From Candidatus Krumholzibacteriia bacterium (GTDB lineage Bacteria; Krumholzibacteriota; Krumholzibacteriia; LZORAL124-64-63), in assembly GCA_016744275.1 (NCBI GenBank), contig JADGEP010000001.1, positions 1-50,111 of the forward strand: DNA of 50,111 nt, given 5' to 3'. The stretch's first letter is position 1, and the number at the start of each line of letters is the position of its first letter. Shown one piece after another: positions 13,568-49,361 of the stretch. The position numbers and the translations under genes were made by a program. The notes beneath the pieces were generated by a model. It worked only from the letters and a program-made list of their open reading frames with translations, did no database searches and was not told the DNA's origin.

Positions 13568-13878
13568 CTTTGATAGGGTCTCTGTACTTGTCTGTTGAGG
13601 ATAGGAGTTTCATACGCGCGGCTCCACTCTCAAGTTGCCCAATCACTCCCGCGTCGGTGAAAACCGCAACCGGCGAGTGAATGTTAAAAGTCAGAATCGG
13701 TTGTATACAAAACCATACTATAGTACTCTTATTTTCGGCCTCGGGGGAGGCCCGCGAAGGGCTTGGGGCTATCCACCCTTGTTTTTCGTGTCCCGTTAGA
13801 TCTCAGATTTTGTCAGAACCGCGCGGCTGGCACCCAGTCCGGTTCGTTTGCTTTTGGTGCATCTTGGGGAGAACCCTT

Positions 13879-15254: not shown

Positions 15255-15347
15255 TTTCGCCGCACATGATGTTGACATCCGTTGCGCGGCATTGTTTTAT
15301 AAGAGCATATATTCCAATCAGCAGCACACTCATCGTGGGGGAACGAT

Positions 15348-15770
15348 GTGAACAGCTTCTTACTGGCGCATGCCAATTTTGCTATCTGGGCTTTCGTTTT
15401 TATCATCATCGGCACCGTATCGACTTGGTCATGGTCAATCACGTTCCGACGCCTATCCCAATCCGATGCCTGCCGCGAGGACTTGCTCTGGGAGGCCCGT
15501 CGCGGGTTGGCCGGCGGAGTCATCTGGCTGGTCGCCATGGGCCTGATTTTTCTATTGATGGTCACCAGTTTTGACATCACCGCCAGCGAAGTTGTCGCTT
15601 TCAGCGATGGCCTCAGCGAAGAGTTGGAGCAGAGCATCAGGGACGAGCGCCGCCTGATATATTTGCCATCCTTGCTCGCGTTTGGGCTGACCATCGGCAC
15701 CATAGCCGTTGCCGGGCGCTGGTCTGGCGCCTGGGCGGCCCTCGAGACCGAGGAGTCGTCCCATGTTTGA
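15348..15770 (+). CDS. Small membrane protein of unknown function (about 4 TM)
   Basis: GTG start preceded by GGGGGA. Helices FAIWAFVFIIIGTV, VIWLVAMGLIFLLMV and LLAFGLTIGTIAVAG. Confidence 0.55.
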   Translation: MNSFLLAHANFAIWAFVFIIIGTVSTWSWSITFRRLSQSDACREDLLWEARRGLAGGVIWLVAMGLIFLLMVTSFDITASEVVAFSDGLSEELEQSIRDERRLIYLPSLLAFGLTIGTIAVAGRWSGAWAALETEESSHV

Positions 15771-33720: not shown

Positions 33721-33897
33721 CGGAGTGCCTCCTTCTTGGAAATGCTCAGTAGCGGGGCTTTGGTCATTTTGACGTCTTGGATCAAAGATTCAAGCTGAAA
33801 CGGCCAGAAGAAAGAGAAATCGACTTCAATTTGACGGTGCCTTCTATCTCTTTTTAAATCAATCAAATACGGCTGCCACCAATCCTCCGCAACGCCG

Positions 33898-33912
33898 CGT
33901 ATACTGTATACG
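33898..33912. promoter_or_regulatory. Perfect 15-bp palindrome containing the recurrent ATACTGTATA motif
   Basis: CGTATAC-T-GTATACG in the divergent intergenic region between the prolyl oligopeptidase and beta-propeller genes. Confidence 0.45.
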
Positions 33913-34002
33913 TCGTTATTTTTGAAAATTCACCTACAACAAACACTCGATCTGCCCGTACGATTCCTGCAGCAATCGGCCCCAGCCAAACAGGAGAACA
34001 AG

Positions 34003-35253
34003 ATGCCGGCCTCACGTCTTCCCGCAATATTTCTGACCGTTCTGGCAACATGTGTGATCGTGACTGCGGCGGCCTCCGCCGGTGAGGTTGTCCAGGTTGA
34101 TGGCCAAACCGTGGTCCGCAATCAGGAACCCGCACAGCCCAGGCTCGAGTTGGAATTGGAAGAACTGTGGCGACGCGGTGGCCAGGACGACGACGTGATG
34201 ATCGGCCTGCCCGTCGAAGCGGTGGCCGACGAAGAAGGCCGCGTTTATCTGGCCGATCAACAGCTTTGCCAGGTTCATGTTTTTAACGCCGCGGGTGAAG
34301 CCGTCAAGACCCTCAGCCGCGAAGGTGACGGCCCCGGCGAAGTGCGCGGCCCGGTCGACCTGGTGCGCCTACCGGACGGCACTTTTGGGTTGTCCGAATT
34401 TTTCCCGGGCAAGATCACGAAGGTCACTTTTGACGACCTTCCCGCCGGTGAAATCAATGTCGATGTGAGCGGTGGCCAAACCGGTGGCTTCACCATGCAA
34501 ACGATGGCCGCCTCCGCTGGCGACCACCTTCTCATTGCCGGATCGCGCTCACTGCCCCAGGAGAAATTCACCGAGCGCACCCACTTCCTGGCCGCCATCG
34601 ACCAGGACGGCAAACAGACCGTGCGCTACATGGAACAGGTGTCGCGCATTCAGCGACCTCACAGTGTGGTTCATGAAAATGACTTCCTACCCAGTTTTCC
34701 TTTGGCCAGCGCCTTGGGCCCCGATGGGCGCGTGTACACTCCGCGTGATCGCGAGAACTACGCCATCAATGTCTTTCTACCCGACGGCACCCTGGATCGC
34801 GTGATCGAACGGCCATCATTCGAAACCTGGAAGCGCAACAAGTTGGACACCCAGCGGGTGCGCACTCTTTTCGAATCCTGGGCGGGAGCAAATCCCGACA
34901 CCTGGCCCCGGTTTGACCTGAAAAAAACCGAGCGCGCCATCAACACCCTGCATGTCGACGGCCAAGGCCGGCTGTGGGTGCAACACAGCCGCAGCAACCG
35001 CAACCTGCCCGAAGGCAACTTTCTCAGTCTCGACCTTTACGATGCCGACGGGCATTGGCAGCGTGAGGTGCGGTTCGTATGTGAAGGCAGTTCGATCAGT
35101 GACGGGGTCCGTTTTCTGGGCGACGGCCGGATATTGCTGATCAAGGGGTTTGTTGTGGCGCGCCTGGCTTGCCTCGGTTCGGGCAATGCGACTCTGGGTG
35201 AGGACGATACCGAGACCATCGAAGTGATTTGCTATCGGTTGCCCTCGATCTAG
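34003..35253 (+). CDS. Secreted beta-propeller repeat protein (NHL / 6-bladed-like)
   Basis: ATG 34003 preceded by AGGAGA. Signal peptide MPASRLPAIFLTVLATCVIVTAAASA. Repeated strands such as RVYLADQQLCQVHVFNAAGE, GRVYTPRDRENYAINVFLPDG and GRLWVQHS. Confidence 0.55.
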   Translation: MPASRLPAIFLTVLATCVIVTAAASAGEVVQVDGQTVVRNQEPAQPRLELELEELWRRGGQDDDVMIGLPVEAVADEEGRVYLADQQLCQVHVFNAAGEAVKTLSREGDGPGEVRGPVDLVRLPDGTFGLSEFFPGKITKVTFDDLPAGEINVDVSGGQTGGFTMQTMAASAGDHLLIAGSRSLPQEKFTERTHFLAAIDQDGKQTVRYMEQVSRIQRPHSVVHENDFLPSFPLASALGPDGRVYTPRDRENYAINVFLPDGTLDRVIERPSFETWKRNKLDTQRVRTLFESWAGANPDTWPRFDLKKTERAINTLHVDGQGRLWVQHSRSNRNLPEGNFLSLDLYDADGHWQREVRFVCEGSSISDGVRFLGDGRILLIKGFVVARLACLGSGNATLGEDDTETIEVICYRLPSI

Positions 35254-35366
35254 AGGTCTATATTTATTCGTTGCACTGCAACGCTTTATAACGTTTTCGT
35301 AAACCCGTTGCCCATTCGGTCAATACGCCCTACCCTCCCCGAAGACCACACACCCGAAAGGCCTTC

Positions 35367-36854
35367 ATGGCGATCCGCATATCAAAATCCAAATATCTCA
35401 ATGGCCTGCAGTGTCCGAAACTGCTGTGGACCCAGTTCAACCAACGCGATTTGATTCCCGAGCCCGGTGCCGGCCAGATGCACATCTTCAACACCGGCCA
35501 CGAAATCGGCGACCTGGCCAAGCTGCTCTATCCCGATGGCATCGAAGTGCCCATGAATTACGAAGACCTTGCGGCCACCGACCACGAGACGGCGGTGCTG
35601 TTGAATTGCCCCAGCGCCGACCGCGTGCCCATTTTTGAAGCCAGTGTGCTGATCGACAACCGCTACTGCCGGGTTGATGTCCTGGTGCCCGTGCCCGACG
35701 AAACCGGTGAAGAGCCCAACCGCTGGGACCTCGTCGAAGTGAAATCGTCGACCCGGGTGCGGGACGTCAATATCAACGACGTCGCCTTTCAGTACGACGC
35801 CCTGACCCGCGCCGGCATCGTATTGCGCACGCTCTCTCTCATGCACGTCAACACGGGTTATGTGCGGGGCGAAGAGTTCGACGTGAAGCAATTTTTCCAC
35901 CTCGAAGACATCACCGATCGCGTTCACAATGTGCTTGAGTACGTGCCGCGCACGGTCAACAAAATGCTCAACGTCATCACCGGACCAGACCCGGACACGC
36001 CCATCGGCAAGCGCTGCACTTCACCCTACACTTGCCCGCTGATTTCTCAATGCTGGTCCGTCTTGCCGGACAACAATGTCACCGATCTCTACTTCAGTGG
36101 TGGACGCGCCTTTGGCTACCTCGACGAGGGCCTGTTCAGCATCGCCGATGTGCCCGATGAGCGTTTGACCCATCAACAAAAAATCCAGAAAAAGGCCATC
36201 ATCGCCAACGCGCCCCACACCAACGCCAAGCAGCTGCACAACTGGCTGGGTGAGCTTGCCTATCCGGTCTACCACCTGGACTTTGAAACCATGAACCCGG
36301 CCTTGCCGCCCTTCCCCGGCGTGCGGCCTTATCAGCGCATTCCTTTTCAGTTTTCGCTGCACATCCAGGACAGTCCCGGCGACGAACCGCGGCACGTCGC
36401 TTTCCTCGCGCGGGAAGCCAGTGACCCCCGGGCCGCCCTGGTCGAAGCCTTGCACGCCATCGGCGACGAAGGATCCATCCTGGCCTGGGCCATGGGTTTT
36501 GAAAAAGGCGTGCTCAACGACATGGCCGAATTGTTCCCCGCCGAGGCCGAGTGGTTGGCCGGGCTGACCGAACGCATGGTCGACCTGATGGTGCCCTTCC
36601 GCAGTTTTTGGTACCACCATCCCGACCAAAAAGGCAGCTGCTCGCTGAAGGCGGTGCTGCCCGCCATTACCAATTTGAGCTATTCAGAACTGGAAATTGC
36701 CGACGGGAACCACGCCTCGCGCGCCTATGCCGAAGTGGTCTACGGGCAAGCGGATGAGAAGACCAAACAGGCCGTCCTGGACCAGTTGTTGGCCTATTGC
36801 GAGCTCGATACCTTTGCCATGGTGGAAATATTGCGCGCGCTGCAAACTGTCTGA
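35367..36854 (+). CDS. DUF2779-family protein: N-terminal PD-(D/E)xK (RecB/Cas4-like) nuclease fold with Cys cluster plus C-terminal DUF2779 region
   Basis: ISKSKYLNGLQCPKLLW N-terminus. RVDVLVP...WDLVEVKSS (D...ExK). CTSPYTCPLISQC. YHLDFET in the C-terminal half. Confidence 0.7.
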   Translation: MAIRISKSKYLNGLQCPKLLWTQFNQRDLIPEPGAGQMHIFNTGHEIGDLAKLLYPDGIEVPMNYEDLAATDHETAVLLNCPSADRVPIFEASVLIDNRYCRVDVLVPVPDETGEEPNRWDLVEVKSSTRVRDVNINDVAFQYDALTRAGIVLRTLSLMHVNTGYVRGEEFDVKQFFHLEDITDRVHNVLEYVPRTVNKMLNVITGPDPDTPIGKRCTSPYTCPLISQCWSVLPDNNVTDLYFSGGRAFGYLDEGLFSIADVPDERLTHQQKIQKKAIIANAPHTNAKQLHNWLGELAYPVYHLDFETMNPALPPFPGVRPYQRIPFQFSLHIQDSPGDEPRHVAFLAREASDPRAALVEALHAIGDEGSILAWAMGFEKGVLNDMAELFPAEAEWLAGLTERMVDLMVPFRSFWYHHPDQKGSCSLKAVLPAITNLSYSELEIADGNHASRAYAEVVYGQADEKTKQAVLDQLLAYCELDTFAMVEILRALQTV

Positions 36855-36871
36855 CGGGTGTCAGGCACCCG
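36855..36871. terminator. Short hairpin between convergent genes
   Basis: cgggtg-tcagg-cacccg (6-bp stem). There is no clear U-tract. Confidence 0.25.
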
Positions 36872-36872
36872 A

Positions 36873-37229
36873 CTATTCATTCTCGCTTTTTCGCTTGAGC
36901 AGTAGAAAAACCTCGCGAAAAGCGGCCACCACGCCCAAAAGCATGCCGACCACAGCGCCCCACGGTGTGATGTCGGCGAACTTCTCAACCAAGCGGCCCA
37001 AAAAATACCCGACCACCGGACCGGCCACCATCAGGCTTGGAATCAGGGTGTAGGTGCCAATATCCTTGGCCGTTTTGCCTAGCTTTTGGTTCAGGCGGCT
37101 ATCCGGACCGGTGCCATCGGCGTTCATTTCCGCCTTTTCGGCCTTCATCCGCGAACGCAGCTTGCGCACCCGCTCCAGATCCGGGGCTTGGGGGTAGACC
37201 TCAAGCTCGTCATTCTCTCCGTCAGTCAA
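36873..37229 (-). CDS. AtpZ/AtpI-like small membrane protein
   Basis: Two C-terminal TM helices, IGTYTLIPSLMVAGPVVGYFLGRLV and PWGAVVGMLLGVVAAF. TTG 37229 sits 5 nt after AGGAGG. No ATP synthase genes are adjacent. Confidence 0.5.
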   Translation of the reverse strand: MTDGENDELEVYPQAPDLERVRKLRSRMKAEKAEMNADGTGPDSRLNQKLGKTAKDIGTYTLIPSLMVAGPVVGYFLGRLVEKFADITPWGAVVGMLLGVVAAFREVFLLLKRKSENE

Positions 37230-37374
37230 AACGTCCTCCTGTAGGGTTGAGTGCCCCAAAGTAACACTTGCCGGCTTTCTGGTTAAGCGCTTTCGAAATC
37301 TGCCGAAAATTGGGCCGATGGCTCCTGATGTATAAGGCCATCTCATTTTGGTATTCAGCAAAGGATATTCGGGG

Positions 37375-39312
37375 ATGTCACCCAACCTGATCAAGGACGA
37401 TGCGATTTGCGACCTGCACGGCCAGCCCCTGCACCCCAAATCGGCGACGCTGCTCAAGGCCCTCGACAAACTGTTGACCGTCGGCGCGTACTATTCGCCC
37501 GAACACGGACAATACCTGCAGGCAGCCATGAAGGCCCGGGATGAAATTGTGGGTGTCATTGGCGCCACCAATCATCATGTCGCCATCGAGATCACCGCTC
37601 AGGGCCTGATGGTGGGCAAACAGAACATCGATCCGCACCACCGCAATGTGCGGCTGCTGCACGATCTGTTGGTGCCCTTGAATATCGCCAAGTTGGAAAT
37701 CGACGGCACCCTCAGTCCCGAAGACTTGCGCCAGGCTCTCGCCGCACTGCAAGAACACAAACAATCCCTCGGCCAATCGAATTCTTTCCAGGAAGTGGTC
37801 ATCCACAACCTGCCCCCTTCGGTGCGGGCCGTCAGCTGCACGGTATTGCACAAGGCCGATGACGCGACCGGCGACCTTTCTCTGGACGACCTGCTCGGCC
37901 AATGGGGCACCGAAGACGAAGCCGAAACCGGCCCTGTGGCCGAAACCCAATCCGAACTTCTGGCTCAGGAATTCATGGACATGGTGGCCAAGATTCTGGA
38001 GAACCTCGAAGAGCTGGAACGTGAATTGGGCGTGCGTCCGCAGAATGAAAAAGACGGGTCCTACGTGACCCAGGCTGAACTGACCAACCTCAAGATCGCC
38101 TTGCAACGCCTGGTCGAAGTGAACCCGGATCCTGCGGACCTCGCCCAGCTCATCGCTCAGGCCCAGCGGGCCCTCGACCTGAGCCGCGACTCCCAATCGG
38201 TCAATCTCGTGTTTCAGATCCTGAAGAAGGACATGTCCAAAGAGAAAGACCCAAAAACAGAAAAGAAACCGCGCCCGCAAGCACCGGTCTCCTACAAGAT
38301 GACCGTTGAACAGCTGTTGGGCACAGTGACAGAGCTTGAAAAATTGAAGGCCCCCGTGGCCGAACCCGTGGCCGGATCCAAGGCCAACCAATTGGGCGTC
38401 AGTTTGCACTTGCTGCGCTCCGATCCGCCACGAGCGCTGCGCACCACCATGGTCGACCTCGTGCACGAGGCCCTTGGCGAAACCGAATTTGCCGCCATCA
38501 ACCTCGAGATCTGCGCCCAGGCCGCTCACACCATTGCCAGTGAAGATGGGGTCGAAAGTATTGATGACATCCTGCCCGTGCTGACCGGTGCCGTGCGGCA
38601 ACGGAGGCCAGAACTGGTCGCCTCTTTCTGGACCCACCTGCTGAAGTTTTCGGCGGACAAACACCTGCCGGAACTGTGGCCCCACCTGGTGAACGATATT
38701 TTACTGGGGTTGGATAAAGCCTCACGGGAGTTGGTCTTGCCGCTGGTCGTAGCCGCTGGCAGCATTTCCCTGAAGGACGCCAAGAGACAGGGCCGGCGCC
38801 TGGAAAAACAACCCGCATTACAATCGCGCCCCAACTCGCGCGACCTCTTCCTGGCGCCGTTGCCCAGCACCTACAATGTGTTGGTTCCCCTGGCCGATTC
38901 TCCCCTGCGCGACTGGCTCGGCGCCGAGCTGTTTCGGGTGCTGCGGACCCATCCGGGCTCGCCCCTGGTCGAAGTCGTGATGACCGCCCTGGCCGAACAC
39001 GAACCTCACAATACCGGCTTCTATCTGGACCTGATTCGTTATGGAACCGCCAAAGAACGGCCGTCCGATTTTCAACAGCAGGTTGCCAGCCTGCTGCAAG
39101 CCGCCCTGGCCACAGTCAGCGGCGACGCCCGCAAAGAACGGTGGGTAACACTCGGCCTGATCGAGCTGGCAAAGTTGGCCCCCGACCTGGCCGCCCCCTT
39201 GTGCGAGATGGTGGTTGCCGAACGCAAGCTCATCTTCTTCAAAGCCTGGCCCCCGGAACCCCGACAGGCCGCCATCAAAGCCCTGGCCCACATCACCGCG
39301 GAGGTCAAGTGA
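37375..39312 (+). CDS. Large (645 aa) uncharacterised protein, module 1 partner A: N-terminal domain shared with HD-GYP partner, helical/HEAT-like C-terminus
   Basis: No catalytic motif recognised. N-terminus LLKALDKLLTVGAYYSPEHGQY. C-terminal HEAT-like WVTLGLIELAKLAPDLAAPLCEMVVAERKLIFFKAWPPEPRQAAIKALAHI. Collinear with 41011-43062. Confidence 0.7.
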   Translation: MSPNLIKDDAICDLHGQPLHPKSATLLKALDKLLTVGAYYSPEHGQYLQAAMKARDEIVGVIGATNHHVAIEITAQGLMVGKQNIDPHHRNVRLLHDLLVPLNIAKLEIDGTLSPEDLRQALAALQEHKQSLGQSNSFQEVVIHNLPPSVRAVSCTVLHKADDATGDLSLDDLLGQWGTEDEAETGPVAETQSELLAQEFMDMVAKILENLEELERELGVRPQNEKDGSYVTQAELTNLKIALQRLVEVNPDPADLAQLIAQAQRALDLSRDSQSVNLVFQILKKDMSKEKDPKTEKKPRPQAPVSYKMTVEQLLGTVTELEKLKAPVAEPVAGSKANQLGVSLHLLRSDPPRALRTTMVDLVHEALGETEFAAINLEICAQAAHTIASEDGVESIDDILPVLTGAVRQRRPELVASFWTHLLKFSADKHLPELWPHLVNDILLGLDKASRELVLPLVVAAGSISLKDAKRQGRRLEKQPALQSRPNSRDLFLAPLPSTYNVLVPLADSPLRDWLGAELFRVLRTHPGSPLVEVVMTALAEHEPHNTGFYLDLIRYGTAKERPSDFQQQVASLLQAALATVSGDARKERWVTLGLIELAKLAPDLAAPLCEMVVAERKLIFFKAWPPEPRQAAIKALAHITAEVK

Positions 39313-39313
39313 C

Positions 39314-40747
39314 ATGGAACAGCAGTTCAGCGATCTGATCATCCTTTTGGCCAGCGGCATCAACCAACGCCGGATGTATTTCGACAATCACCCCAAAGTG
39401 CGCAGCATCAGCGCCGAATTTGTCGGCACGTTGAAGCCGATGCTCGAGAGCGGCGTGCAGAACGAGTTCACTTTTGGCGTCCACGGCAGCAAGTTCATCC
39501 GCGAGGGCAAGTTTCTCGTCGGGCCGTCGATTGCCGGCCGATCATTGATCGAGTTCGCCGACCGCCTGGGCTGCGGTGGGTTTGTTTTCCGCCTGCCCTT
39601 GACTCGCAACGACGTCATCAATTTTTTCAGTCTCGGCGCCGCCACCAAGGAAGAACTCGAAGACCTCACGGCCGCCCGTAAACTGTTCGCCGAATCCGGT
39701 CTGGGACACATCGAGCTCGCCTCGCCGTTCACCGCCGAAGGTGATGAAGGAAGTGGCGGCGGCGACGGGGCAGATTCCGCGGTTCAAGAGGGCGTCGAGA
39801 TGGATTTCATGGCGGCCGATTTTGCGCCACTGCTGCAGGTCTACCAGGCTCTCTACGAAACCGTGGCCACCAACAACCTGGCACTCAACGGCGACAACCG
39901 CATTGACCTTGATGAAGCCCGAGCACGCGGTGCCGAATTGGTCGCCGTGTCTGACCAGGGCGCGCTGGATGTCATGCAGTTCATGCGCTACCCCGACTTC
40001 GACAGTTACACCATCGGGCACTCGGTTCGCGTCGCGGCTCTGGGCGCCTTGCTCGCCCGCGAGTTGGGCTGGTCCCATGAATTGCAAAACGAAATCGCCA
40101 CCGCCGGACTCCTGCACGATCTCGGCAAGGGCAAAGTGCCGGATGAAATTCTCTTCAAGCCCGGACGCCTCAACGATGATGAAAGAAGTGTCATGGAGAC
40201 CCACCCAGTCCTCGGTGCGCGGGTCCTGTTGGCCAACGGAGAAACCAGCCCGATCGTTCTTTCAGCGGCGTGGGGCCACCACCTGCGCGAAGATGGGCGG
40301 GGCTATCCGGTGATGCCGGAGTGGTTCACCCGCAGCTCGGCCGCGGCCCTGATTCATGTCTGCGATGTCTTCGAAGCCCTGACGGCGGCCCGCCCCTACA
40401 AGCGCCCCATGGACCCCCGGCGAGCCTACGAAATCATGGTGGCCGACAAGGGCGCATTTCATCCCGCCATGTTGGCCGCTTTGGTTCGGGCTCTCGGACT
40501 TTATCCTCCCGGCAGCGAAGTTCTGCTCTCGGATCAACGACGGGCCGTGGTGGTGGCCAAAGGCGAATTGCCGGAACGTCCGCAGGTTCGGGTGACCCAC
40601 GACGCGGAAGGGTTTCCCTTGTCCCGATCCGAGCAACCGGCCATCAACTTGTCGGGATCAAGCGACCTTGAGGTTATTGAGTTCGTCAGCGTTGGCGTTG
40701 AGCAACTTGGTGAGGCTGAAACGGAAGGCGTGATACAAAACGCCTAA
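39314..40747 (+). CDS. HD-GYP domain protein (class II cyclic-dinucleotide phosphodiesterase family), module 1 partner B
   Basis: ATG lies 1 nt after the upstream stop, with GGAGG upstream. HD-GYP motifs TIGHSVRV, LLHDLGKGKVP, ETHPVLG, GHHLREDGRGYP and CDVFEALTAARPYK. Confidence 0.85.
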   Translation: MEQQFSDLIILLASGINQRRMYFDNHPKVRSISAEFVGTLKPMLESGVQNEFTFGVHGSKFIREGKFLVGPSIAGRSLIEFADRLGCGGFVFRLPLTRNDVINFFSLGAATKEELEDLTAARKLFAESGLGHIELASPFTAEGDEGSGGGDGADSAVQEGVEMDFMAADFAPLLQVYQALYETVATNNLALNGDNRIDLDEARARGAELVAVSDQGALDVMQFMRYPDFDSYTIGHSVRVAALGALLARELGWSHELQNEIATAGLLHDLGKGKVPDEILFKPGRLNDDERSVMETHPVLGARVLLANGETSPIVLSAAWGHHLREDGRGYPVMPEWFTRSSAAALIHVCDVFEALTAARPYKRPMDPRRAYEIMVADKGAFHPAMLAALVRALGLYPPGSEVLLSDQRRAVVVAKGELPERPQVRVTHDAEGFPLSRSEQPAINLSGSSDLEVIEFVSVGVEQLGEAETEGVIQNA

Positions 40748-41010
40748 ATTGTTGTAAAACAAGAAATTACCATTATCGAATACTGTATACCAGTATTGTG
40801 TGTAATATACCACAGAGCCTTGTAACAAAAAACCACACAGTACCTCAATGGGGAATAACCCCCACTCTTTTAAACAATTCTTTATTTGATGTCAGAAAAT
40901 CGGATCTCAAAACCCCTGAGAAACAAACCAATTAGCTCAAATATATCTCAAAAGTGACCCGGAACGGTCGAAATTAGAGACAGGGATATTCTATGGAGAG
41001 GAGGGTCACT

Positions 41011-43062
41011 ATGTCTGAATCACTATCTAAAACAGATCAGGAAGAGGCGCACGCGGGGCCCGAATTGGGATCTGATTTGACCGATGCGCCGCAGGAATCG
41101 CCAGCCGTGGATTCGCCTCCACTGGCAGCGGAACACGAACAACTTCTCATCGCTCTGGACCGCATGTTGACGACCGGCAGCTACTACCCGCCCGGACACG
41201 CCCAATACGTAGCCGTCGCCGACCAGTGTGCCGATGCCGTAGCCGGAGCCCTGCACGGCCTGGCCTGCGTCGAGATTGAAGTCACCACCGAAGGCCTGGC
41301 CGTAGGTGGTGGAGTCGCCGAAAAAAGCAATCGCTGCGCCCAGCGTTTGTACGAATTGCTCGAGCCCCTGAATCAGGCTCTGCTCGAAATCCATGCCGAT
41401 GTCACCACCGAAGATTTGCACGAAGCGCTGTCAGTGCTCAAGCACAACCACAAGCAATTGGCCGGCACCCGCGACTACCAGGAAATCGAAATCGAAGGCA
41501 TGCCCCAGACCGTGTCGGTCACCGGGCGCAGCCTCTACGTGCGCACCAAAACCGGCAACGGTCCCGAGCAAACTTCGAGTCCTTTGAACGAATACTTCGA
41601 CCCCAATACGATTCCGGATGCGGCCCTGGTGCCCACCCCGGAAGGCCAAATGATGGAGCGTGAATTCCTCGCCGTCATTCAGGGCCTGATGAAGGCGGGC
41701 AACGCCGCCCACCTGGATGCTCTGCGCGATGCCGGCGACACGCCGGTGGCCGAGATCCTCGGCACCTGGGTGCCGGATTTTGCCATCAAGTCGATCAAGG
41801 ATATGCTCAATGCTCTGGAAGAGACCAATTCTGATGCTTCGATGTTGCATCACCTGGTCGGACATGCCCAAACAGCCCTGCAACTGACGGGCGACCCGCT
41901 TCTGGTCGAGCTGATCTTTGAAAAGCTGCGCAAGGAAAACAAAGCCAGCAAGAAGTCTCAGCCCTTGTTGGAAAAACGCCCCAAACCCGTCCGCAAAGCC
42001 ACCACCTTCACCCTCTCACGGGCCGAATTGCGTTCCCTGATTGATGACGTTTACACCGAGGCCGATACCCTCGAGCCCCTTGAAGACATTGTCGCCCCGG
42101 CCCGCGCCGATGCCATCGGCATCTGCCTGCAGGTTCTGAACGTGGCCCCTTCCGACGAGTTGTCCGCCGGCATCACCACCTCCCTGGAAGTGATGCTGTC
42201 CTCCGAACACCTGAATGAGGTCGATCTGCAGGTGGCCGTCGACGCCTTGATCGATGTCTTCAAATACGACAAGCTCGAAACGGCCGAAGCCATGGTCTCC
42301 ATGGTCTGCCCACCGCTGCGGCACGCTCACCGCGCCAAGTTGGGTCCTTTGTGGCTCAACGTGTGGAACGGATTGGCAAGTGCCCAGCAATACGAGCGGG
42401 CCTGGCCCTTCGTGGTCAACGAACTGCTGATGGGCATGTGGTGGGAAGACCCGCGCGAAAAAATCGCGCTCTACAACGCACTCAGTTCCGTCCATGTGGC
42501 CGACCGCACCGACCTGCTCATCAGGTTGGAAAACCTGCCCGCACTCAAGGAAAAGATCCTGGCCAAAGAGCTGTTCCACGTGCCGGCGCCGCTGCTCTAT
42601 GGCGTCCACCAGTTGTTGATGATGTCGTCGCTGACCGATCTGCACGGGCCCTTGATGCACCAGCGCCTCGAGTATCAGAAGGCCCACCCGCTGGCGACCA
42701 TTCTCATGAACGGTTTTGCCGAATACAACCACGCCCACCGGCAGGCCTATCAAGCGATCCTGATCCAGGGAGTGTCTGAAAAGATCGCCCCCGAGATGCA
42801 GGACGTCGCCACCCGGCACCTGAAAGGGACCTTGAATCGGCTGCCAGCCGAACGTCGGGAAGAACCCTGGGTCACGGAAGCCATTCGTTGGCTGGGAAAA
42901 TTGGGCACGGCCAAGACGCGGCCGGTGCTGAAGAAAATCGTCTCTGATAAAAAATTTCTGCTGTTCCCGGAATGGCCTGCGGCCTGCCGGAATGCTGCCA
43001 GCGACGCCCTCGCTGGAGTGAACACGTCCGATGAGAGGGATCGCCATGATTTCCACAGATAG
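41011..43062 (+). CDS. Large (683 aa) uncharacterised protein, module 2 partner A (paralogue of 37375-39312)
   Basis: ATG 41011 preceded by GGAGAGGAGGG. LLIALDRMLTTGSYYPPGHAQY. AWPFVVNELLMGM matches LWPHLVNDILLGL in the paralogue. C-terminal HEAT-like WVTEAIRWLGKLGTAKTRPVLKKIV...ACRNAASDALAGV. Confidence 0.7.
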   Translation: MSESLSKTDQEEAHAGPELGSDLTDAPQESPAVDSPPLAAEHEQLLIALDRMLTTGSYYPPGHAQYVAVADQCADAVAGALHGLACVEIEVTTEGLAVGGGVAEKSNRCAQRLYELLEPLNQALLEIHADVTTEDLHEALSVLKHNHKQLAGTRDYQEIEIEGMPQTVSVTGRSLYVRTKTGNGPEQTSSPLNEYFDPNTIPDAALVPTPEGQMMEREFLAVIQGLMKAGNAAHLDALRDAGDTPVAEILGTWVPDFAIKSIKDMLNALEETNSDASMLHHLVGHAQTALQLTGDPLLVELIFEKLRKENKASKKSQPLLEKRPKPVRKATTFTLSRAELRSLIDDVYTEADTLEPLEDIVAPARADAIGICLQVLNVAPSDELSAGITTSLEVMLSSEHLNEVDLQVAVDALIDVFKYDKLETAEAMVSMVCPPLRHAHRAKLGPLWLNVWNGLASAQQYERAWPFVVNELLMGMWWEDPREKIALYNALSSVHVADRTDLLIRLENLPALKEKILAKELFHVPAPLLYGVHQLLMMSSLTDLHGPLMHQRLEYQKAHPLATILMNGFAEYNHAHRQAYQAILIQGVSEKIAPEMQDVATRHLKGTLNRLPAERREEPWVTEAIRWLGKLGTAKTRPVLKKIVSDKKFLLFPEWPAACRNAASDALAGVNTSDERDRHDFHR

Positions 43063-44602
43063 CAATTCGAATGCCGACATCGATCCGGGTCGTTTCAGTG
43101 ATCTGATCATTCTGCTTTCGGGCGGCATCAACCAGCGACGGTTGTATTTCGACACGCACCCCAAGATCAAGAAACAGAGCGAATCATTCGCCAGTCAATT
43201 GCGCGAACGTTTGAACAACTCTGGCGAGACGGCCTTCTTTTTTGGCGTGCTCAACGGCAAGTTCATCCGCGATGGCAAGTACCTCATCGGGCCGTCCATC
43301 GCAGGCAAGAACCTGATCGAGTTTGCCGAAAAAATGTGCTGCGGCGGGTTTCTTTTTCGCAAGAGTGTCGAGGCAGAGGAAGTGGCGGCCTTTTTCCGGG
43401 TCTCGGCCGAATTGCGCGACCCCGCCGACAATCTGGATGAAGCCCGGGCGCTGTTTGCTTCCGAAGGCATCCGCAATATCGAACTGTCGCCGTTTTATCG
43501 CGAAGCGGGCTCAAGCCAGAACGTCCCCAGCCAGGATCTGTCGCTGATTGATCCGGGCCTGATCCAATTCGACTTCAGCGAGCACGACGACGAAGACGGC
43601 GGCATGGGCAAGACCGTCTCCGAAGAACTCGCCCCGCTGTTGCCCATCTTCCAATCCATGTACGAAGCGGTGACGGACAATAACATCAACATTTCCCGCG
43701 ACAAGGATCTGGACCTGGCCCAGACATTTTCCGTGGGCGAGGACCTGCACGATGTCTCGGACCGCGAAACCATGGACATCATGAACCTGATGCGGTACCC
43801 GGATTACGACAGCTACACCATCGGGCATTCGGTGCGGGTTTCCACCCTGGCGCTGACGGTGGGCCGGGAAATGGGTTGGCCTGAAGAAGGCTTGGCCGAG
43901 TTGGCCACCGCCGGCCTGTTGCACGACATCGGCAAGGCCAAGGTGCCCGAAGAGATCCTCTACAAACCCGGCCGCCTGGATGCCGACGAACGCAAGATCG
44001 CCGAAAGCCACGCCGCCATTGGCGCCAATATTTTGCTCTCCCGCGGCGAAGCCAGTCCCTTGGTCATTGCCGGTGCCTGGGGTCACCACATCCGCCACGA
44101 CGAAGGCGGCTACCCGCCGCTGCCCGAGTGGGCGGTGCTCAGTCCCATCGCCGGGTTGATCCAAATTTGCGATGTCTTCGAAGCCTTGACCGCGGCCCGG
44201 CCCTACAAGTTGCCGATGCCTCCGCGTCGCGCCTTTGAGATCATCCTCAAGGACAGGACCGCATTTTGTCCACGTGCTCTGGCGGCGCTCATCCGCTCGA
44301 TCGGTTTGTACCCGCCCGGCAGTGAAGTGATTCTGAATGATGGCACCCGCGGTTATGTAGTGCGCAAGGGCCCGGATTGGGAGCAACCCGAAGTGCGCCT
44401 GACAGAATTGAAGGATGGCACCAGGTTGGACAAGGAAGACCAGGTCGTCAAGCAGTTGCACATCGAAGAAGACCTCGAAGTGGCCGATTTCCTCATGGTG
44501 GGCCTGGATCCGGAACAGTCCGAAGGCGGCGACGCCACCAAGGAACTGATTGAGGAGACTTCGCGGGAAATCGACGCCATCATGGAAGACGCGACGACCT
44601 GA
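43046..44602 (+). CDS. HD-GYP domain protein, module 2 partner B (paralogue of 39314-40747)
   Basis: ATG 43046 (GAGAGGGA upstream) overlaps the upstream gene by 17 nt. Motifs TIGHSVRV, LLHDIGKAKVP, ESHAAIG, GHHIRHDEGGYP and CDVFEALTAARPYK. Confidence 0.85.
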   Translation: MISTDSNSNADIDPGRFSDLIILLSGGINQRRLYFDTHPKIKKQSESFASQLRERLNNSGETAFFFGVLNGKFIRDGKYLIGPSIAGKNLIEFAEKMCCGGFLFRKSVEAEEVAAFFRVSAELRDPADNLDEARALFASEGIRNIELSPFYREAGSSQNVPSQDLSLIDPGLIQFDFSEHDDEDGGMGKTVSEELAPLLPIFQSMYEAVTDNNINISRDKDLDLAQTFSVGEDLHDVSDRETMDIMNLMRYPDYDSYTIGHSVRVSTLALTVGREMGWPEEGLAELATAGLLHDIGKAKVPEEILYKPGRLDADERKIAESHAAIGANILLSRGEASPLVIAGAWGHHIRHDEGGYPPLPEWAVLSPIAGLIQICDVFEALTAARPYKLPMPPRRAFEIILKDRTAFCPRALAALIRSIGLYPPGSEVILNDGTRGYVVRKGPDWEQPEVRLTELKDGTRLDKEDQVVKQLHIEEDLEVADFLMVGLDPEQSEGGDATKELIEETSREIDAIMEDATT

Positions 44603-44620
44603 TTTCTGGGTTGGGATAGA

Positions 44621-44653
44621 AAAAACACCCCGGTTCATCACCGGGGTGTTTTT
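44621..44653. terminator. Bidirectional rho-independent terminator
   Basis: aaaaacaccccgg-ttcatca-ccggggtgttttt, between the second HD-GYP gene and the convergent bactofilin gene. Confidence 0.85.
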
Positions 44654-44675
44654 ATTTCAGCGCAGGCTTGTGGAT

Positions 44676-45095
44676 CTACTTCTTCAGCGTCTCCGGTTGC
44701 TTGGCCGCGTTCGGTGTCGCTGGTGCAGGCGTCTTGCGCGTGCCCGAACCCATGGAGCAATTGCCCTCGAAGAACACGCCTTCGTCGATCACCAGACGCT
44801 TGGTCTTGATGTCGCCCTCGACGTGGGATCCGCTTTGCAATTCGATTTTGTTTTCGGCCACAATGTTGCCAAAGAGCTGGCCGCCAATAATGGCGTTTTT
44901 AACATTGCAGTTGGCGTGCACGACGCCCGTCTTGCCGATGACCAGGCTTTCAGGCGTGCCGATGTCGCCCTTGAATTCGCCTTCGATTCTCAACGTGCCA
45001 TTAACAACGACCGTGCCATCAAACTTGCATCCTTGCGCAATGATGGACGTCTGGCCGGAAGCCATGGTCTGATTCTCGGGTTCTTTGTTGAACAT
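44676..45095 (-). CDS. Bactofilin (DUF583 polymer-forming cytoskeletal protein)
   Basis: Beta-helical repeat pattern GCKFDGTVVVNGTLRIEGEFKGDI...GVVHANCNVKNAIIGGQLFGNIVAENKIELQSGSHVEGDIKTKRLVIDEGVFFEGN, with a disordered Pro/Ala tail. AAGGAGG SD; start at ATG 45095 or 45101. Confidence 0.85.
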   Translation of the reverse strand: MFNKEPENQTMASGQTSIIAQGCKFDGTVVVNGTLRIEGEFKGDIGTPESLVIGKTGVVHANCNVKNAIIGGQLFGNIVAENKIELQSGSHVEGDIKTKRLVIDEGVFFEGNCSMGSGTRKTPAPATPNAAKQPETLKK

Positions 45096-45188
45096 CTTCA
45101 TCCTCCTTGACCCGTGCGACTGGGGCGCCGGGTGTTCAAAATGCGGAGCCAAAGCGCCACATTAGCACCATTGACTGATTCGTACAGC

Positions 45189-45995
45189 CTATTTCTGTTC
45201 GGGTTCTCCCGCCACGATTTGGCGTGGGTCGATGGCCTCGCCCTGCTCCCAAATTTCGAAATGCAGGTGGGTTGCCGTTGTCTGTCCGGTGTTGCCCACG
45301 TAGGCCACAACCTGGCCCGCAGCCACGCGGTCGCCGTTATTGACCGCGCTGCGGCTGCAATGGCCGTATACGGTTAAGTAACCCATCCCATGTTGGATTT
45401 CAACAAAGTTTCCCAGGAAATCGTCAAACCCGGTGCGGGCCACGACACCTGCTGCCGACGCCACAATCGGGCCGTCTGCTGGCCCGGCGATGTCGATTCC
45501 CAGATGAGGTTTGATACCCCGAGCCTGGCTGCCTTTGACAAACTCCTGAGTTACAAAACCCGCGGCTGGCCATTGGCTCGGGCGTGGGCTTTGCACCACT
45601 GAGGCAGCCCGTCGCATGCCTTCAGCCGATGAACCAGGGCTTTGGTCGGCCCAAACCGCCATCAGGGTATCGCCTTCGGCTGCGCCGAGACCCTCGACCC
45701 CCAACATCATCAGCAATTGTTCCTGGGCCTGGCGCATGTCTTCCAGATGCACCGCCAATTCATGAGCCACCTGAACCTCGGCCCGGGATTTCTCCAACTG
45801 TGATTCCAATTCCATAATGGCCTGTCGCTCATCATGTTTGGTGGCAAAGCTGTGCATCAGCAAGCCTAAGAAGCCCGTAAATATCAGGACCAACAGCAGC
45901 AATAGAAACACCACGGGGCGACTGATGCCGTACTCCCGTGAGGCGCGTTCGTCCGATGACATGACAATGATTCGAGTATGGGCTGGAATCCCCAC
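45189..45995 (-). CDS. M23-family (LytM-domain) metallopeptidase with N-terminal TM anchor and coiled coil
   Basis: HLGIDIAGPADGPIVASAAGVV (HxxxD) and GNTGQTTATHLHFEI (HxH). GTG 45995 sits 4 nt after AGGAGG; ATG 45962 is an alternative. Confidence 0.85.
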   Translation of the reverse strand: MGIPAHTRIIVMSSDERASREYGISRPVVFLLLLLVLIFTGFLGLLMHSFATKHDERQAIMELESQLEKSRAEVQVAHELAVHLEDMRQAQEQLLMMLGVEGLGAAEGDTLMAVWADQSPGSSAEGMRRAASVVQSPRPSQWPAAGFVTQEFVKGSQARGIKPHLGIDIAGPADGPIVASAAGVVARTGFDDFLGNFVEIQHGMGYLTVYGHCSRSAVNNGDRVAAGQVVAYVGNTGQTTATHLHFEIWEQGEAIDPRQIVAGEPEQK

Positions 45996-46026
45996 GAGTC
46001 CTCCTGGGCTCGGCTCAAGCGTCCGA

Positions 46027-47487
46027 TTACTGACCGGTCGTGTCAGCGGATTCGTCAGCTTCGGCTTCGTCGTCAATCAGGGCCAATTGGCCCTTTCGGT
46101 TCCCCTGGCCGCTGCGAGCTCGCGGGAACCACAAAGTGAAGGTCGTGCCGCGGCCCAATTCGCTGTCCAGTTCGATCCGTCCCCCGTGTTCATGCACGAT
46201 GCGGGCCACAATCGAAAGCCCCAGGCCCGTGCCTTTGCCGTAGTCCTTGGTCGTGAAGAATGGCAGGAAGATGCGCCCCTGGGCCTCTTCGGGAATGCCC
46301 TCGCCGGTGTCGGTGAAACGCACGCGCAATTCGCCCGCACCGCCGTCATCCAGCACGATATTCACGGCCCCACCTCCGGACATCGCATCCAGGGCATTGG
46401 CCAACAAATTGAAGAAGACCTGCTCCAACTCGTTCCGGTTTCCGTACACGGCGGGTTCCGTTTCGTGGACAATATTCAATTCGACATCGGCGACTTTCAA
46501 CTTTTTTTCCATCAGATAAATCGTATCGCTGATGATCTCTGAAAGGTCGACTCGCCCACGTTCCGATCCGGTCGGACGTGCGAAGTTCAACAGCCCTTTG
46601 ATGATGCCGCGGCACTGTTCTGTCTGTCGGATGATGCGATGAATGTCTTCGCTGTCGTCTTCATCTTCGATGGTTTCTTCGAGCATTTGCGCCGACAACA
46701 GGATCGCTCCCAGCGGCGTATTCAACTGGTGGGCGATGCCCGCTGCCAGTTGTCCAATGCCCGCCAGCTTTTCGGTTTCACTCATGCGGCTTTCGAGTTG
46801 TTTTTCGCTGGTCACATCGCGAGCAATAACGGTGAAACTCTTGTCTTTTTCCGCCATCGGGCCGCGGCCTGGCTGGATGTAGGAAAACGTCAGGCTGAGC
46901 TGGGTGACCGCTTCGGTGTTCTTCTTTTTGACCTGGACTTCATAGGTGAGACTGCGGCCAACGCGTTCGACATCCTGGAAAATTTCCAATACCGGCACAT
47001 CCAGGCCGGTCTTCAATTGGCAGATGTTGACACCCAAAGCATGGCGGCGGTAGACCCCAAAAAGTGTCTCCGCTTTTTTGTTCCACTCCTGCACGTGGCC
47101 TTTGTGGTCGAGCAGGAAAATGGCCTCGCCGGCGTGGTTGATGATGCTGCGGTACTTGTGTTCGCTGCGCCGCAAACGCAGGTGCCCCAGCTCCCGCACC
47201 CGAAGCCTGAAGAACATGCTCCAGCCCACCACCAAAAGCAGAAACTGAAAGGTGCCGGCTCTCAGCATCCCCGTGATAATCGCGCCGGATTCCCACTCAT
47301 ATTTCCACAGCGCCGGCAACGACCCGGTCGCCTGAAAGGCCCGGCTGAGGCTGACGATATTGTAGCCCAGGTAGAGAAGCGAACCCACAACCAGCAGAGA
47401 TAGAATCAGGCGCAGTTTGAGGATGCGCCCTACCGAAAAGCGGCGGGTGAAAAAACGGTAAACGCTCGTTGACTTGTTCGTCTTCAT
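46027..47487 (-). CDS. Membrane-bound PAS-domain sensor histidine kinase
   Basis: Two N-terminal TM helices. PAS-like YRSIINHAGEAIFLLDHKGHVQEWNKKAE. H-box AAGIAHQLNTPLGAI. N-box FFNLLANALDA. G1 FTDTGEGIPEE. G2 GKGTGLGLSIV. Confidence 0.9.
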   Translation of the reverse strand: MKTNKSTSVYRFFTRRFSVGRILKLRLILSLLVVGSLLYLGYNIVSLSRAFQATGSLPALWKYEWESGAIITGMLRAGTFQFLLLVVGWSMFFRLRVRELGHLRLRRSEHKYRSIINHAGEAIFLLDHKGHVQEWNKKAETLFGVYRRHALGVNICQLKTGLDVPVLEIFQDVERVGRSLTYEVQVKKKNTEAVTQLSLTFSYIQPGRGPMAEKDKSFTVIARDVTSEKQLESRMSETEKLAGIGQLAAGIAHQLNTPLGAILLSAQMLEETIEDEDDSEDIHRIIRQTEQCRGIIKGLLNFARPTGSERGRVDLSEIISDTIYLMEKKLKVADVELNIVHETEPAVYGNRNELEQVFFNLLANALDAMSGGGAVNIVLDDGGAGELRVRFTDTGEGIPEEAQGRIFLPFFTTKDYGKGTGLGLSIVARIVHEHGGRIELDSELGRGTTFTLWFPRARSGQGNRKGQLALIDDEAEADESADTTGQ

Positions 47488-47497
47488 AGTCGATCCA

Positions 47498-48448
47498 CTA
47501 CAATTCCGTATCCACGCCCATGATCTTCAGCAATCGGATCAGGTCGTCGTCCGAGTAGAACCGCAGCTGAATCGACCCTTTGCCCGTTTTCGAATCGCGA
47601 TCAATGGCGACAGGAGAGCCATAAACCTGTTCTGAACGTTCCATCAGTGCCCGCACCGTTGGGTCCACTGCAGCCATCTTCGCTTTGCGGGTTTTGCGGG
47701 TGGGCTTGGCACCCCCGGAGCGGGCTCGCGCCTCACAATCGCGAACAGACAACCCTCTGGTATAACATAATTTAGCCAACTGCAACCGCGCGGGCCCAGG
47801 TGGCATTCCCAGCAAAACCTTGGCGTGTCCCTTGGAAATTTTCCCCTCTTGAAGCAGCCCCAGGATCTCTTTTTCGAGAGATAGAATGCGGACCATATTA
47901 GCCACACCGCTGCGGCTTTTGCCCAGCATCGCCGCTAATTCTTCCTGAGTGGCGCCATAGGCCTCCATCAGGTTGCGGTAGGCCTCGCCTTCTTCAATAG
48001 GGCCCAAGTCTTCGCGCTGGATATTCTCTAACAGTGCGATCTTCAAGGCTTCGGTTTCTTCGTAAGAACAGATCAGGACGGGAATATCGGTCAAGCCGGC
48101 CAAACGACTGGCCCGCACCCGCCTCTCACCGGCAACCACGCTATAAAGCAGTCCTGCTGCCGGCGCCAAGCTGTCCGGATGCTGCCTGGCGCTCTCGCCG
48201 CCGCTCAGCTTGCGTACCAAAACCGGTTGCAGCACGCCAACCTGCTTGATGCTTTCCGCCAATTCAGCCAACCTTGCCTGATCAAACAACTTACGCGGCT
48301 GATCAACATTGAACCCAACCGCCTCCAGGGGCACCGTGCTGGACAATTCATTGCTCGTCGGCGCGGCTACAGGGCTGGGTTCACCTCTGAAATCTGACCC
48401 ATTCAAGAGGGCGGACAACCCTTTGCCAAGGACCCGGTTCTTGCTCAT
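47498..48448 (-). CDS. parB: Chromosome partitioning protein ParB/Spo0J
   Basis: LGKGLSALL N-terminus. ParB box VVAGERRVRASRLAG. HTH TQEELAAMLGKSRSGVANMVRIL. Two parS sites lie upstream of parA. Confidence 0.92.
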   Translation of the reverse strand: MSKNRVLGKGLSALLNGSDFRGEPSPVAAPTSNELSSTVPLEAVGFNVDQPRKLFDQARLAELAESIKQVGVLQPVLVRKLSGGESARQHPDSLAPAAGLLYSVVAGERRVRASRLAGLTDIPVLICSYEETEALKIALLENIQREDLGPIEEGEAYRNLMEAYGATQEELAAMLGKSRSGVANMVRILSLEKEILGLLQEGKISKGHAKVLLGMPPGPARLQLAKLCYTRGLSVRDCEARARSGGAKPTRKTRKAKMAAVDPTVRALMERSEQVYGSPVAIDRDSKTGKGSIQLRFYSDDDLIRLLKIMGVDTEL

Positions 48449-48502
48449 CTTCGCACCCCTCCTGCACCAAATTCGGCGCAGATCTGTTCTTGGATTCTAC
48501 GA

Positions 48503-49261
48503 CTAGATGTTCTTGGCGATCACTTCTTGAGCCAGGTCCAGATAACTGCGCGCCCCGACGCAGTCCACATCATAAAGCAGGATTGGCTTGCCAAACGACG
48601 GCGCCTCGCTCAAACGTACATTGCGCGGAATCTTGGTTTGGTAGACCGTTTCGCCAAAGAAGTCGATGGCCTCTTCTGCGACCTGATTGGACAACTTCAG
48701 GCGGCCGTCCCACATCGTGAGCAACACGCCCTCCAACCTCAGTTCTGTATTCAACCCGCGCTGCACCAACTGCACTGTGCTTAAGAGTTGGCTCAAACCC
48801 TCAAGCGCATAGTATTCACACTGGATGGGGATCAGAACTGAGTCCGCGGCGGTCAGCGCGTTGAGCGTGAGCATGCCCAAACTCGGCGGAGTGTCGATGA
48901 CGACAAACTCATACCGCTCCCGCAGCGACCCGACTGCTTTCTTGAGGAACTGCTCCCGGTCTTCCTGAGTGACCAATTCCACCTCAGAACCGGCCAGGCG
49001 CCGGTCCGTCGGAATCACGTCCAAATAGGAAATCTTGGTATTCTGGACACATTCTGCGATCGACGCCGACCCCAACATAAACTCATAACTGGTTCCGCCA
49101 TTGGGGCTTACACCGACCCCGCTTGAAGCGTTGCCCTGGGGGTCCAGGTCGATCAAAAGTGTTCTTTTTTCCGCGACAGCGAGACTGGCGCACAGATTAA
49201 CTGCTGTCGTGGTCTTGCCGACTCCACCTTTTTGGTTGGAGATGGCGATGATTTTACCCAT
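48503..49261 (-). CDS. parA: Chromosome partitioning ATPase ParA/Soj
   Basis: MGKIIAISNQKGGVGKTTTAVNL (deviant Walker A), plus DLDPQGNAS and VIDTPPS. ATG 49261 preferred over the longer ORF start. Confidence 0.92.
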   Translation of the reverse strand: MGKIIAISNQKGGVGKTTTAVNLCASLAVAEKRTLLIDLDPQGNASSGVGVSPNGGTSYEFMLGSASIAECVQNTKISYLDVIPTDRRLAGSEVELVTQEDREQFLKKAVGSLRERYEFVVIDTPPSLGMLTLNALTAADSVLIPIQCEYYALEGLSQLLSTVQLVQRGLNTELRLEGVLLTMWDGRLKLSNQVAEEAIDFFGETVYQTKIPRNVRLSEAPSFGKPILLYDVDCVGARSYLDLAQEVIAKNI

Positions 49262-49361
49262 GGCGGAGGCCCGCCTTTCCTCGATTAGTGGTGTTTTGCT
49301 GCAGGAGGACAATCTACAAGGACGGGTGTCTCGCCGTCAAGAACTCGCGGGACAGCGCTCG

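Follow-up and report, generated by a model that had tools for sequence, protein, structure and literature searches.

Why does a bacterial genome carry, twice in immediate succession, a gene for a large protein of no recognisable family followed by a gene for an HD-GYP protein, and do the products of such a pair act together? The question is posed by a 50,111-nucleotide stretch of DNA from a Candidatus Krumholzibacteriia bacterium (assembly GCA_016744275.1, contig JADGEP010000001.1, positions 1 to 50,111), referred to here as the window; coordinates without a locus name refer to it. The open reading frame (ORF) list places two consecutive gene pairs in the window, A1-B1 and then A2-B2, all on the plus strand. 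A1 (37375–39312) and A2 (41011–43062) encode partner proteins of 645 and 683 residues, and B1 (39314–40747) and B2 (43046–44602) encode predicted HD-GYP phosphodiesterases of 477 and 518 residues, the two pairs being designated type 1 and type 2. We lean towards a reading in which A and B together make up a two-subunit cytoplasmic enzyme, with an α-solenoid in the apparently non-enzymatic A subunit that would regulate or localise the hydrolysis of cyclic di-guanosine monophosphate (c-di-GMP) by B.

Both pairs are tightly packed. A single nucleotide separates the stop codon of A1 from the start of B1 (TGA-C-ATG), which is preceded by GGAGG, and B1 appears translationally coupled to A1; A2 and B2 share 17 nt of coding sequence (43046–43062). 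For A2, the start at 41011 is preferred over another ATG at 40993 because a GGAGG Shine-Dalgarno sequence lies 8 nt upstream of it. A1 and A2 are collinear over their whole length, with 27% identity (E = 9e-68), whereas B1 and B2 are 49% identical (E = 7e-166), and the tandem modules are a genuine duplicated gene pair rather than a chance resemblance. In all these respects the first-pass annotation, which had been made from the sequence alone, was accurate: the ORF coordinates and lengths, the 1-nt gap, the 17-nt overlap and the 263-bp AT-rich spacer between the modules are as it gave them, the peptides it quoted are present, and the large proteins are indeed more diverged than their HD-GYP partners.

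The pairing of the two genes extends far beyond the window. A pattern scan with one genome per GTDB species recovered 35 loci, mostly in metagenome-assembled genomes (MAGs) titled Krumholzibacteriia or Krumholzibacteriota, with several in entries titled ‘bacterium’ or ‘uncultured bacterium’, a few in ‘Fibrobacteraceae’ entries and three in Myxococcota or ‘Deltaproteobacteria’ MAGs. Across these 35 loci plus the window, a full-length B gene lies directly 3′ of A at all 42 readable junctions, at distances that cluster at −8, −4, −1, +1 and +4 nt; in total, A was followed by B at each of the 47 junctions that could be read. Starting instead from B homologues, a gene for a protein of 632–644 residues lacking a Pfam match was found directly upstream in six of six cases, and the family hidden Markov model (HMM) identified it as A in all five for which DNA was available (E = 1e-186 to 1e-210). 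The position of A on the 5′ side of an HD-GYP gene, which the first-pass annotation had proposed as a check, is therefore seen from both sides. When 1.84 billion representative proteins were searched exhaustively by profile, 379 members of the A family were found; the 150 of these that were listed all share one and the same architecture, with no fusions among the matches listed, and within these 150 complete homologues have about 600–750 residues while shorter matches cover the profile in part.

The partners have also diverged in step. Clustering of A and clustering of B give matching sets of four clades (type 1, type 2, another Krumholzibacteriia type and a Myxococcota clade) without a single discordant pair, and the pairwise identities of A correlate with those of B at r = 0.956, A evolving faster than B (mean identity 31% versus 51%). 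The nearest relatives of the window proteins come from MAGs of Krumholzibacteriia and are 73% identical for A and 83% identical for B. Genomes hold two or three ancient paralogous pairs, and the order of these varies: A1B1-A2B2 is found in the window and in loci L003, L007, L018 and L020, the reverse order A2B2-A1B1 in L014, L015, L017, L023 and L025, and in several MAGs types 1 and 2 are found on different contigs. Occurrence in tandem is therefore no hallmark of these pairs. Since the order is variable and neighbours other than A and B are conserved only within sub-lineages, the two-gene module can be regarded as the unit of selection, duplicated as a whole long ago, and the type 1 and type 2 modules of the window are paralogues of ancient origin.

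Some loci differ in detail. A gene of about 2.1–2.5 kb lies between B1 and A2 in L007 (13508–15412 of that locus), L018 and L020, and in L007 it encodes a VUPS-PAS-HisKA-HATPase histidine kinase. In L003 the type-2 A gene is split into two overlapping ORFs of 433 and 299 residues (13517–15573), which could reflect a pseudogene frameshift or an assembly error. The pairs from Myxococcota, Myxococcaceae or Deltaproteobacteria MAGs (L029, L030 and L031) form a clade of their own, with A 22–27% and B 39–44% identical to the window proteins, which points to an ancient presence outside Krumholzibacteriota or to horizontal transfer. The close relatives titled ‘Fibrobacteraceae’ (e.g., L006, with A 67% identical) may be mislabelled bins.

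The identification of B as an HD-GYP protein is borne out by Pfam HD_5/HD matches at E ~1e-24 (1.4e-24 for B1 and 2.3e-23 for B2), which cover residues 231–381 of B1, and by the motifs HHxxxDGxGYP, LLHDxGK and RPYK. The PDB sequences closest to B1 are PmGH (4MCW, E = 2.6e-24) and V-cGAP3 (5Z7C, E = 1.8e-20), with the similarity confined to the catalytic domain. When the full-chain AlphaFold2 (AF2) model of B1 (pLDDT 80) was submitted to Foldseek, only HD-GYP matches were returned, namely 4mcw (PmGH), 4r8z (PA4781), 9rbz (DvhD) and 3tm8 (Bd1817) at E = 3e-8 to 1e-5, and none for the N-terminal domain of B1. B1 comprises this N-terminal domain (residues 1–136; 39314–39721), the HD-GYP catalytic domain (residues 225–398; 39986–40507) and a small C-terminal β domain (residues 400–460; 40511–40693), which is modeled with strands at residues 402–459 (pLDDT 84–90) and has the conserved motif LGLYPPGSEV. 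In B2 the N-terminal domain spans approximately residues 13–150 (43082–43495) and the HD-GYP domain, in which the catalytic residues are kept, approximately residues 250–423 (43793–44314).

Residue conservation was assessed in 40 B sequences from the four clades, with B1 numbering and with motif roles, including those of KPG and RxY[K/R], taken from the available text of Galperin & Chou (doi 10.1101/2021.11.05.467447). The metal ligands His236, His268-Asp269, His297, His322-His323 and Asp351, which align to those of PmGH, are invariant in all 40, and so are Asp327 and the GYP residues Gly330-Tyr331-Pro332. Within the KPG motif, Lys282 is found in 40, Pro283 in 29 and Gly284 in 35 of the 40 sequences, and Arg360-x-Tyr362-Lys363 (RxYK) is kept throughout. 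The position equivalent to the third-metal residue Glu185 of PmGH is occupied by Tyr in 38 sequences and by Phe in two; lacking this Glu, B is assigned to the binuclear type. The RxYK motif is linked in the same text of Galperin & Chou to c-di-GMP specificity, which makes c-di-GMP the most likely substrate. B is thus predicted from its residues to be an active, binuclear-type, c-di-GMP-specific phosphodiesterase, the product of which is probably pGpG.

A lacks significant matches in Pfam, NCBIfam and PADLOC, and in the PDB none was found with either a single sequence or the family profile; when the PDB was searched by sequence and by profile, queries with A1, the A family and the N-terminal domains of A and of B returned noise only. 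In Pfam, A has no match to PilZ, to degenerate GGDEF or EAL domains or to MshEN, and profile comparison of its C-terminal region revealed no HD-GYP remnant (P = 0.27). A is a family absent from Pfam, NCBIfam and the PDB. The AF2 model of A1 (pLDDT 78) divides into three parts, i.e., an N-terminal α/β domain (residues 18–135; 37426–37779; pLDDT ~90), a charged linker with short helices (residues 156–310; 37840–38304; pLDDT 32–67) that has disordered stretches at residues 156–190, 219–229 and 288–304, and a C-terminal α-solenoid of about 20 stacked helices (residues 311–645; 38305–39309; pLDDT 85–95). The N-terminal domain of A2 covers approximately residues 37–153 (41119–41469). In a Foldseek search of the PDB, the A1 model gave only weak matches to ARM, HEAT or TPR proteins or to designed repeats (the best being Armc8 and designed repeats, E at least 0.04), and Pfam HEAT_2 appears in A2 only, below threshold at E = 0.047. 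Of the earlier description of A as HEAT-like, the helical-repeat character is thus retained in the predicted fold, and since the resemblance is weak and generic the C-terminal region is best called an unclassified α-solenoid. A was not placed in any characterised family, as profile, structure and sequence searches yielded nothing beyond this generic likeness. Residues Tyr40, His44, Leu102, Pro147, Trp435-Pro436, Trp625 and Arg630 are invariant in A, and Pro626 is present in 38 of 39 sequences; none of the invariant residues appears suggestive of catalysis. The conserved arginines are Arg90, Arg93 and Arg630.

The link between the two proteins that goes beyond gene order is their N-terminal domain. 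No similarity between the N-termini of A and B was detected by BLASTP; however, domain-restricted profiles built from the loci gave P = 6.8e-4, compared with 0.19–0.67 for control domain pairs, and hhalign of diverse N-domain alignments (14 A against 16 B sequences) gave P = 3.7e-5 with a score of 37.3 over 86 columns, placing residues 39–125 of A on residues 21–108 of B. The reversed control scored 12.8, and none of 150 shuffles of the B columns reached 37.3 (mean 12.7, s.d. 2.4, maximum 21.7; z ~10). In a cross-search of 3837 ORFs, taken from all six frames of 559 kb of related DNA, 14 of the 17 sub-threshold matches of the A N-domain HMM beyond its own family were B N-termini (best E = 0.0034), and the next-best matches of the B N-domain HMM beyond its own family were A N-termini; the domain was not found in a third type of protein in this set. 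The AF2 models have an identical order of elements in A and B, helix-helix-strand-strand-strand-helix-strand-helix (αα-βββ-α-β-α), and the invariant Tyr and His are aligned, Tyr40/His44 of A with Tyr22/His26 of B, at what is modeled as the turn between the first two helices. Homology of the two domains, remote but real, is well supported, and the common N-terminal domain proposed by the first-pass annotation is recovered in the register it had suggested.

This domain does not appear among known HD-GYP accessory domains. B has no GAF or REC match in Pfam or NCBIfam, and DUF3391 (PF11871) is matched neither by full-length B at E ≤ 1 nor by 16 isolated N-domains at E ≤ 10. The predicted αα-βββ-α-β-α order of the B domain also differs from that of DUF3391, which is described by Galperin & Chou as four strands followed by two helices. 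The isolated N-domains fall into no consistent Pfam family even at E ≤ 10 and have no PDB profile match, and the B domain is not among the HD-GYP-associated domains listed in their survey, which include REC, GAF, PAS, DUF3391, DUF3369 and MASE9-12. Together with the A protein, the N-domain constitutes the second of two new families, being absent from Pfam, NCBIfam and the PDB. In the B domain, Tyr22, His26, Pro27, Gly70, Gly75, Gly88 and Gly89 are invariant in all 40 sequences, Phe23 is found in 39, and Arg19 in all 36 sequences that cover it.

Paralogous sensor domains commonly pair, and we infer hetero-oligomerisation of A and B through the common N-domain from translational coupling, co-divergence and domain homology. 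Each two-gene operon would then encode both subunits of one cytoplasmic signaling enzyme. With their genes translationally coupled, A and B would tend to be made in roughly matched amounts, and they would associate through their N-domains as a heterodimer or a 2:2 assembly. The solenoid of A would serve as an input or targeting surface that binds a protein or ligand, and binding there would switch or localise the hydrolysis of c-di-GMP by B, probably to pGpG. As the partners have co-diverged, each A is presumably specific to its own B, and this co-divergence would maintain cognate specificity. A fuller version of the model, to which we hold only tentatively, describes an obligate two-subunit c-di-GMP phosphodiesterase in which a catalytic HD-GYP subunit and a non-catalytic α-solenoid subunit are joined via a new signaling domain of about 120 residues with the αα-βββ-α-β-α order and an invariant Tyr-x3-His, the domain possibly being a small-molecule sensor site as well, to which B contributes its invariant Gly-rich loops and A its conserved arginines, and in which each genome maintains two or three insulated cognate pairs.

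Several observations weigh against this model. The full-length profile-profile comparison of A and B is not significant (P = 0.27), although it places the two in the proposed register, and the N-domain similarity is remote, at about 8% identity and an hhalign probability of only 71%. In place of the HHE-motif Glu, B has Leu or Ile in 38 of the 40 sequences and Arg in two; this Glu is not named among the metal ligands in the available text of Galperin & Chou. The B domain has invariant Gly-rich loops, GPSIAGR and CGG, which have no counterpart in A, so that the B domain may bind a ligand instead of, or besides, pairing with A. Finally, tight operon linkage and co-divergence are also compatible with a functional link that involves no stable complex.

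One such link would make A an effector or target of c-di-GMP that acts via its solenoid, and B a dedicated local sink, the two being co-expressed without a stable N-domain complex. Strict operon linkage and co-divergence are what a local signaling pair would equally be expected to have, B is catalytically intact as judged by its residues, and Arg90, Arg93 and Arg630 of A could bind a nucleotide. However, Pfam recognises no c-di-GMP-binding domain or motif in A, and the homologous N-domains are more simply accounted for by pairing or by a common input; we regard this arrangement as unlikely. Homologous N-domains would also be seen if A were an inhibitory pseudo-paralogue that traps the N-domain of B and blocks its homodimerisation until a signal on the solenoid frees B, and the available text of Galperin & Chou suggests both that the dimer is the active form of HD-GYP proteins and that N-terminal domains could promote dimerisation. 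This would be a sub-case of the two-subunit enzyme in which the sign of regulation is specified, and we regard it as quite unlikely; the C-terminal part of A, moreover, retains no sign of an earlier HD-GYP domain (P = 0.27).

The catalytic role of B is questioned by a further possibility, in which B is a cyclic-dinucleotide receptor rather than an enzyme and the A-B pair a c-di-GMP-controlled scaffold, by analogy with DvhD, RpfG and HnoD. Regulatory, non-catalytic HD-GYP proteins are documented in the available text of Galperin & Chou, the DvhD HD-GYP domain with bound c-di-GMP is among the fold matches of B1, and the HHE Glu is replaced in all 40 B sequences. The documented non-catalytic proteins, however, have degenerate HD/HHE metal ligands according to the same text, whereas His236, His268, Asp269, His297, His322, His323 and Asp351 are invariant across the 40 B sequences and four clades, and a purely receptor function therefore seems very unlikely. 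As a compact two-gene unit that includes an HD-superfamily protein, the pair could also be taken for a mobile toxin-antitoxin or anti-phage defence module, and B has weak PADLOC matches to Cas3-HD (E = 4e-5 to 1e-3). These reflect the generic HD motif only and are confined to the HD core, and A has no match in PADLOC-DB v2; moreover, in Krumholzibacteriia the pairs reside in a conserved chromosomal block near parAB, each genome has two or three ancient paralogous pairs with consistent clades, and no mobile-element genes occur among the immediate neighbours examined, all of which makes a defence role highly improbable. We thus retain the two-subunit enzyme as the reading that we lean towards. 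The overall interpretation of the first-pass annotation is partly supported: A has remained outside characterised families, its synteny with HD-GYP genes is conserved, and similarity between the two N-terminal regions is detectable.

How does such a pair compare with known HD-GYP systems? PmGH (GAF-HD-GYP, 4MCW) and the Bd1817/PA4108 family (DUF3391-HD-GYP, 3TM8) share with B the order of N-terminal domain, helical linker and HD-GYP domain, and their catalytic domain resembles that of B in sequence and fold, with the metal ligands, GYP, KPG and RxYK conserved. The N-domain of B, however, is neither GAF nor DUF3391, and a separate partner gene with a homologous domain always accompanies B. Because its N-domain is undescribed, B falls outside the architectural families of PmGH, Bd1817 and RpfG. 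Unlike PmGH, B lacks the third-metal Glu, and in this it belongs with PA4781 from Pseudomonas aeruginosa (REC-HD-GYP, 4R8Z; fold match E = 1e-7), which also lacks the Glu185-type acidic residue; PA4781 is controlled in cis by its REC domain, whereas B has a new N-domain and a separately encoded partner. By its sequence, B adds a new member to the HD-GYP family, within the binuclear subclass represented by PA4781. In V-cGAP3 from Vibrio cholerae (tandem HD-GYP, 5Z7C), the catalytic domain of which matches B at E = 1.8e-20, activity depends on a paralogous non-catalytic module; however, this regulatory module is a degenerate HD-GYP domain in the same chain, while the paralogy of A and B lies in the N-domain and the putative regulator is a separate solenoid polypeptide. 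The RxYK motif of B suggests c-di-GMP, not cyclic GMP-AMP as for V-cGAP3.

Separate proteins that control a c-di-GMP enzyme by direct contact are known from SiaC-SiaD, RdcA/RdcB-DgcE and HnoD-HnoB, in which HnoD inhibits HnoB. This likeness, as that to the regulatory module of V-cGAP3, is drawn from the literature only. SiaC, RdcA/RdcB and HnoD are unrelated to A in sequence and act on GGDEF/EAL enzymes, and, unlike A, they have no domain homologous to that of their own enzyme and no α-solenoid. ARM, HEAT and TPR scaffolds resemble A in that about 20 stacked antiparallel helices are predicted for its C-terminal half and in that helical-repeat proteins account for all of the weak Foldseek matches, but no repeat family is matched significantly and the WP motifs are specific to the A family. 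In the literature we found no description of an HD-GYP protein in connection with Krumholzibacteriota, with HEAT, armadillo or solenoid proteins or with a partner protein that matches the A-B pair, nor a described HD-GYP protein that is regulated by a dedicated, separately encoded subunit.

The spacer between the two modules (40748–41010) has a GC content of 37.3%, compared with 57.6% across the window, and a terminator-like hairpin (40726–40745) overlaps the end of B1. The hairpin and the AT-rich spacer suggest that A1B1 and A2B2 are separate transcription units, and the promoter of A2B2 is presumed to lie in the spacer. A scan for the sigma-70 consensus gave background levels (3 sites versus 2.3 expected), and no promoter was therefore assigned. 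A riboswitch or structured RNA in the spacer or 5′ of either module was considered and rejected: in the region 36.5–45.5 kb no Rfam family, including the c-di-GMP riboswitch, reaches its gathering score, two weak matches being at chance level, and the spacer is not unusually structured (fold z-score −0.71).

In Krumholzibacteriia the pairs are embedded in a conserved block, which extends over 31648–49312 in the window and is also found in L007, L014–L017, L020, L021 and L025. Its 5′ side consists of an S9 prolyl oligopeptidase, a DUF2779 protein and a small AtpZ/ATPase_gene1-like membrane protein, and the A-B pairs are followed on the 3′ side by a bactofilin, an M23 peptidase, a PAS histidine kinase, ParB and ParA. 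The bactofilin and M23 peptidase beside parAB suggest a connection with cell shape or chromosome segregation. The PAS histidine kinase of the window (46027–47487) is encoded on the opposite, minus strand, 1.4 kb downstream of B2, and its ORF is overlapped by that of the M23 peptidase (45189–46076, minus strand) by 50 nt (46027–46076), where one start codon may be misplaced or the genes may be coupled. A plus-strand ORF of 443 residues on the 5′ side of the DUF2779 gene (33922–35253) has no Pfam match at E ≤ 0.001, and its N-terminus is hydrophobic and, by eye, signal-like (MPASRLPAIFLTVLATCVIVTAAASAG). In L036 (7389–11735), L039 (4559–7151) and L040 (4401–7401) the pair is followed by combinations of an MntP manganese exporter, a hemerythrin, an M28 peptidase and a PDZ protein. 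The MntP and hemerythrin neighbours are notable because Fe2+ or Mn2+ serves HD-GYP enzymes as metal and because redox sensing by hemerythrin domains is known for HD-GYPs, yet they may reflect simple lineage synteny.

HD-GYP proteins are the less understood of the two classes of c-di-GMP phosphodiesterases, and their input signal is mostly unknown. The scope of the present finding is limited, as these are small, lineage-restricted families (379 representatives among 1.84 billion proteins) found mainly in Krumholzibacteriota, an uncultured phylum, and nothing indicates a new biochemical principle. Within this scope, the A-B pair, which is co-inherited, apparently translationally coupled and co-diverging, offers a testable model for the regulation of HD-GYP enzymes in trans, and it provides a first handle on second-messenger signaling in Krumholzibacteriota, a phylum represented here by MAGs only. 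The paralogous pairs also suggest how duplicated pairs could remain insulated from each other and, if the model is correct, mutually insulated cognate pairs would constitute parallel, independently addressed c-di-GMP sinks.

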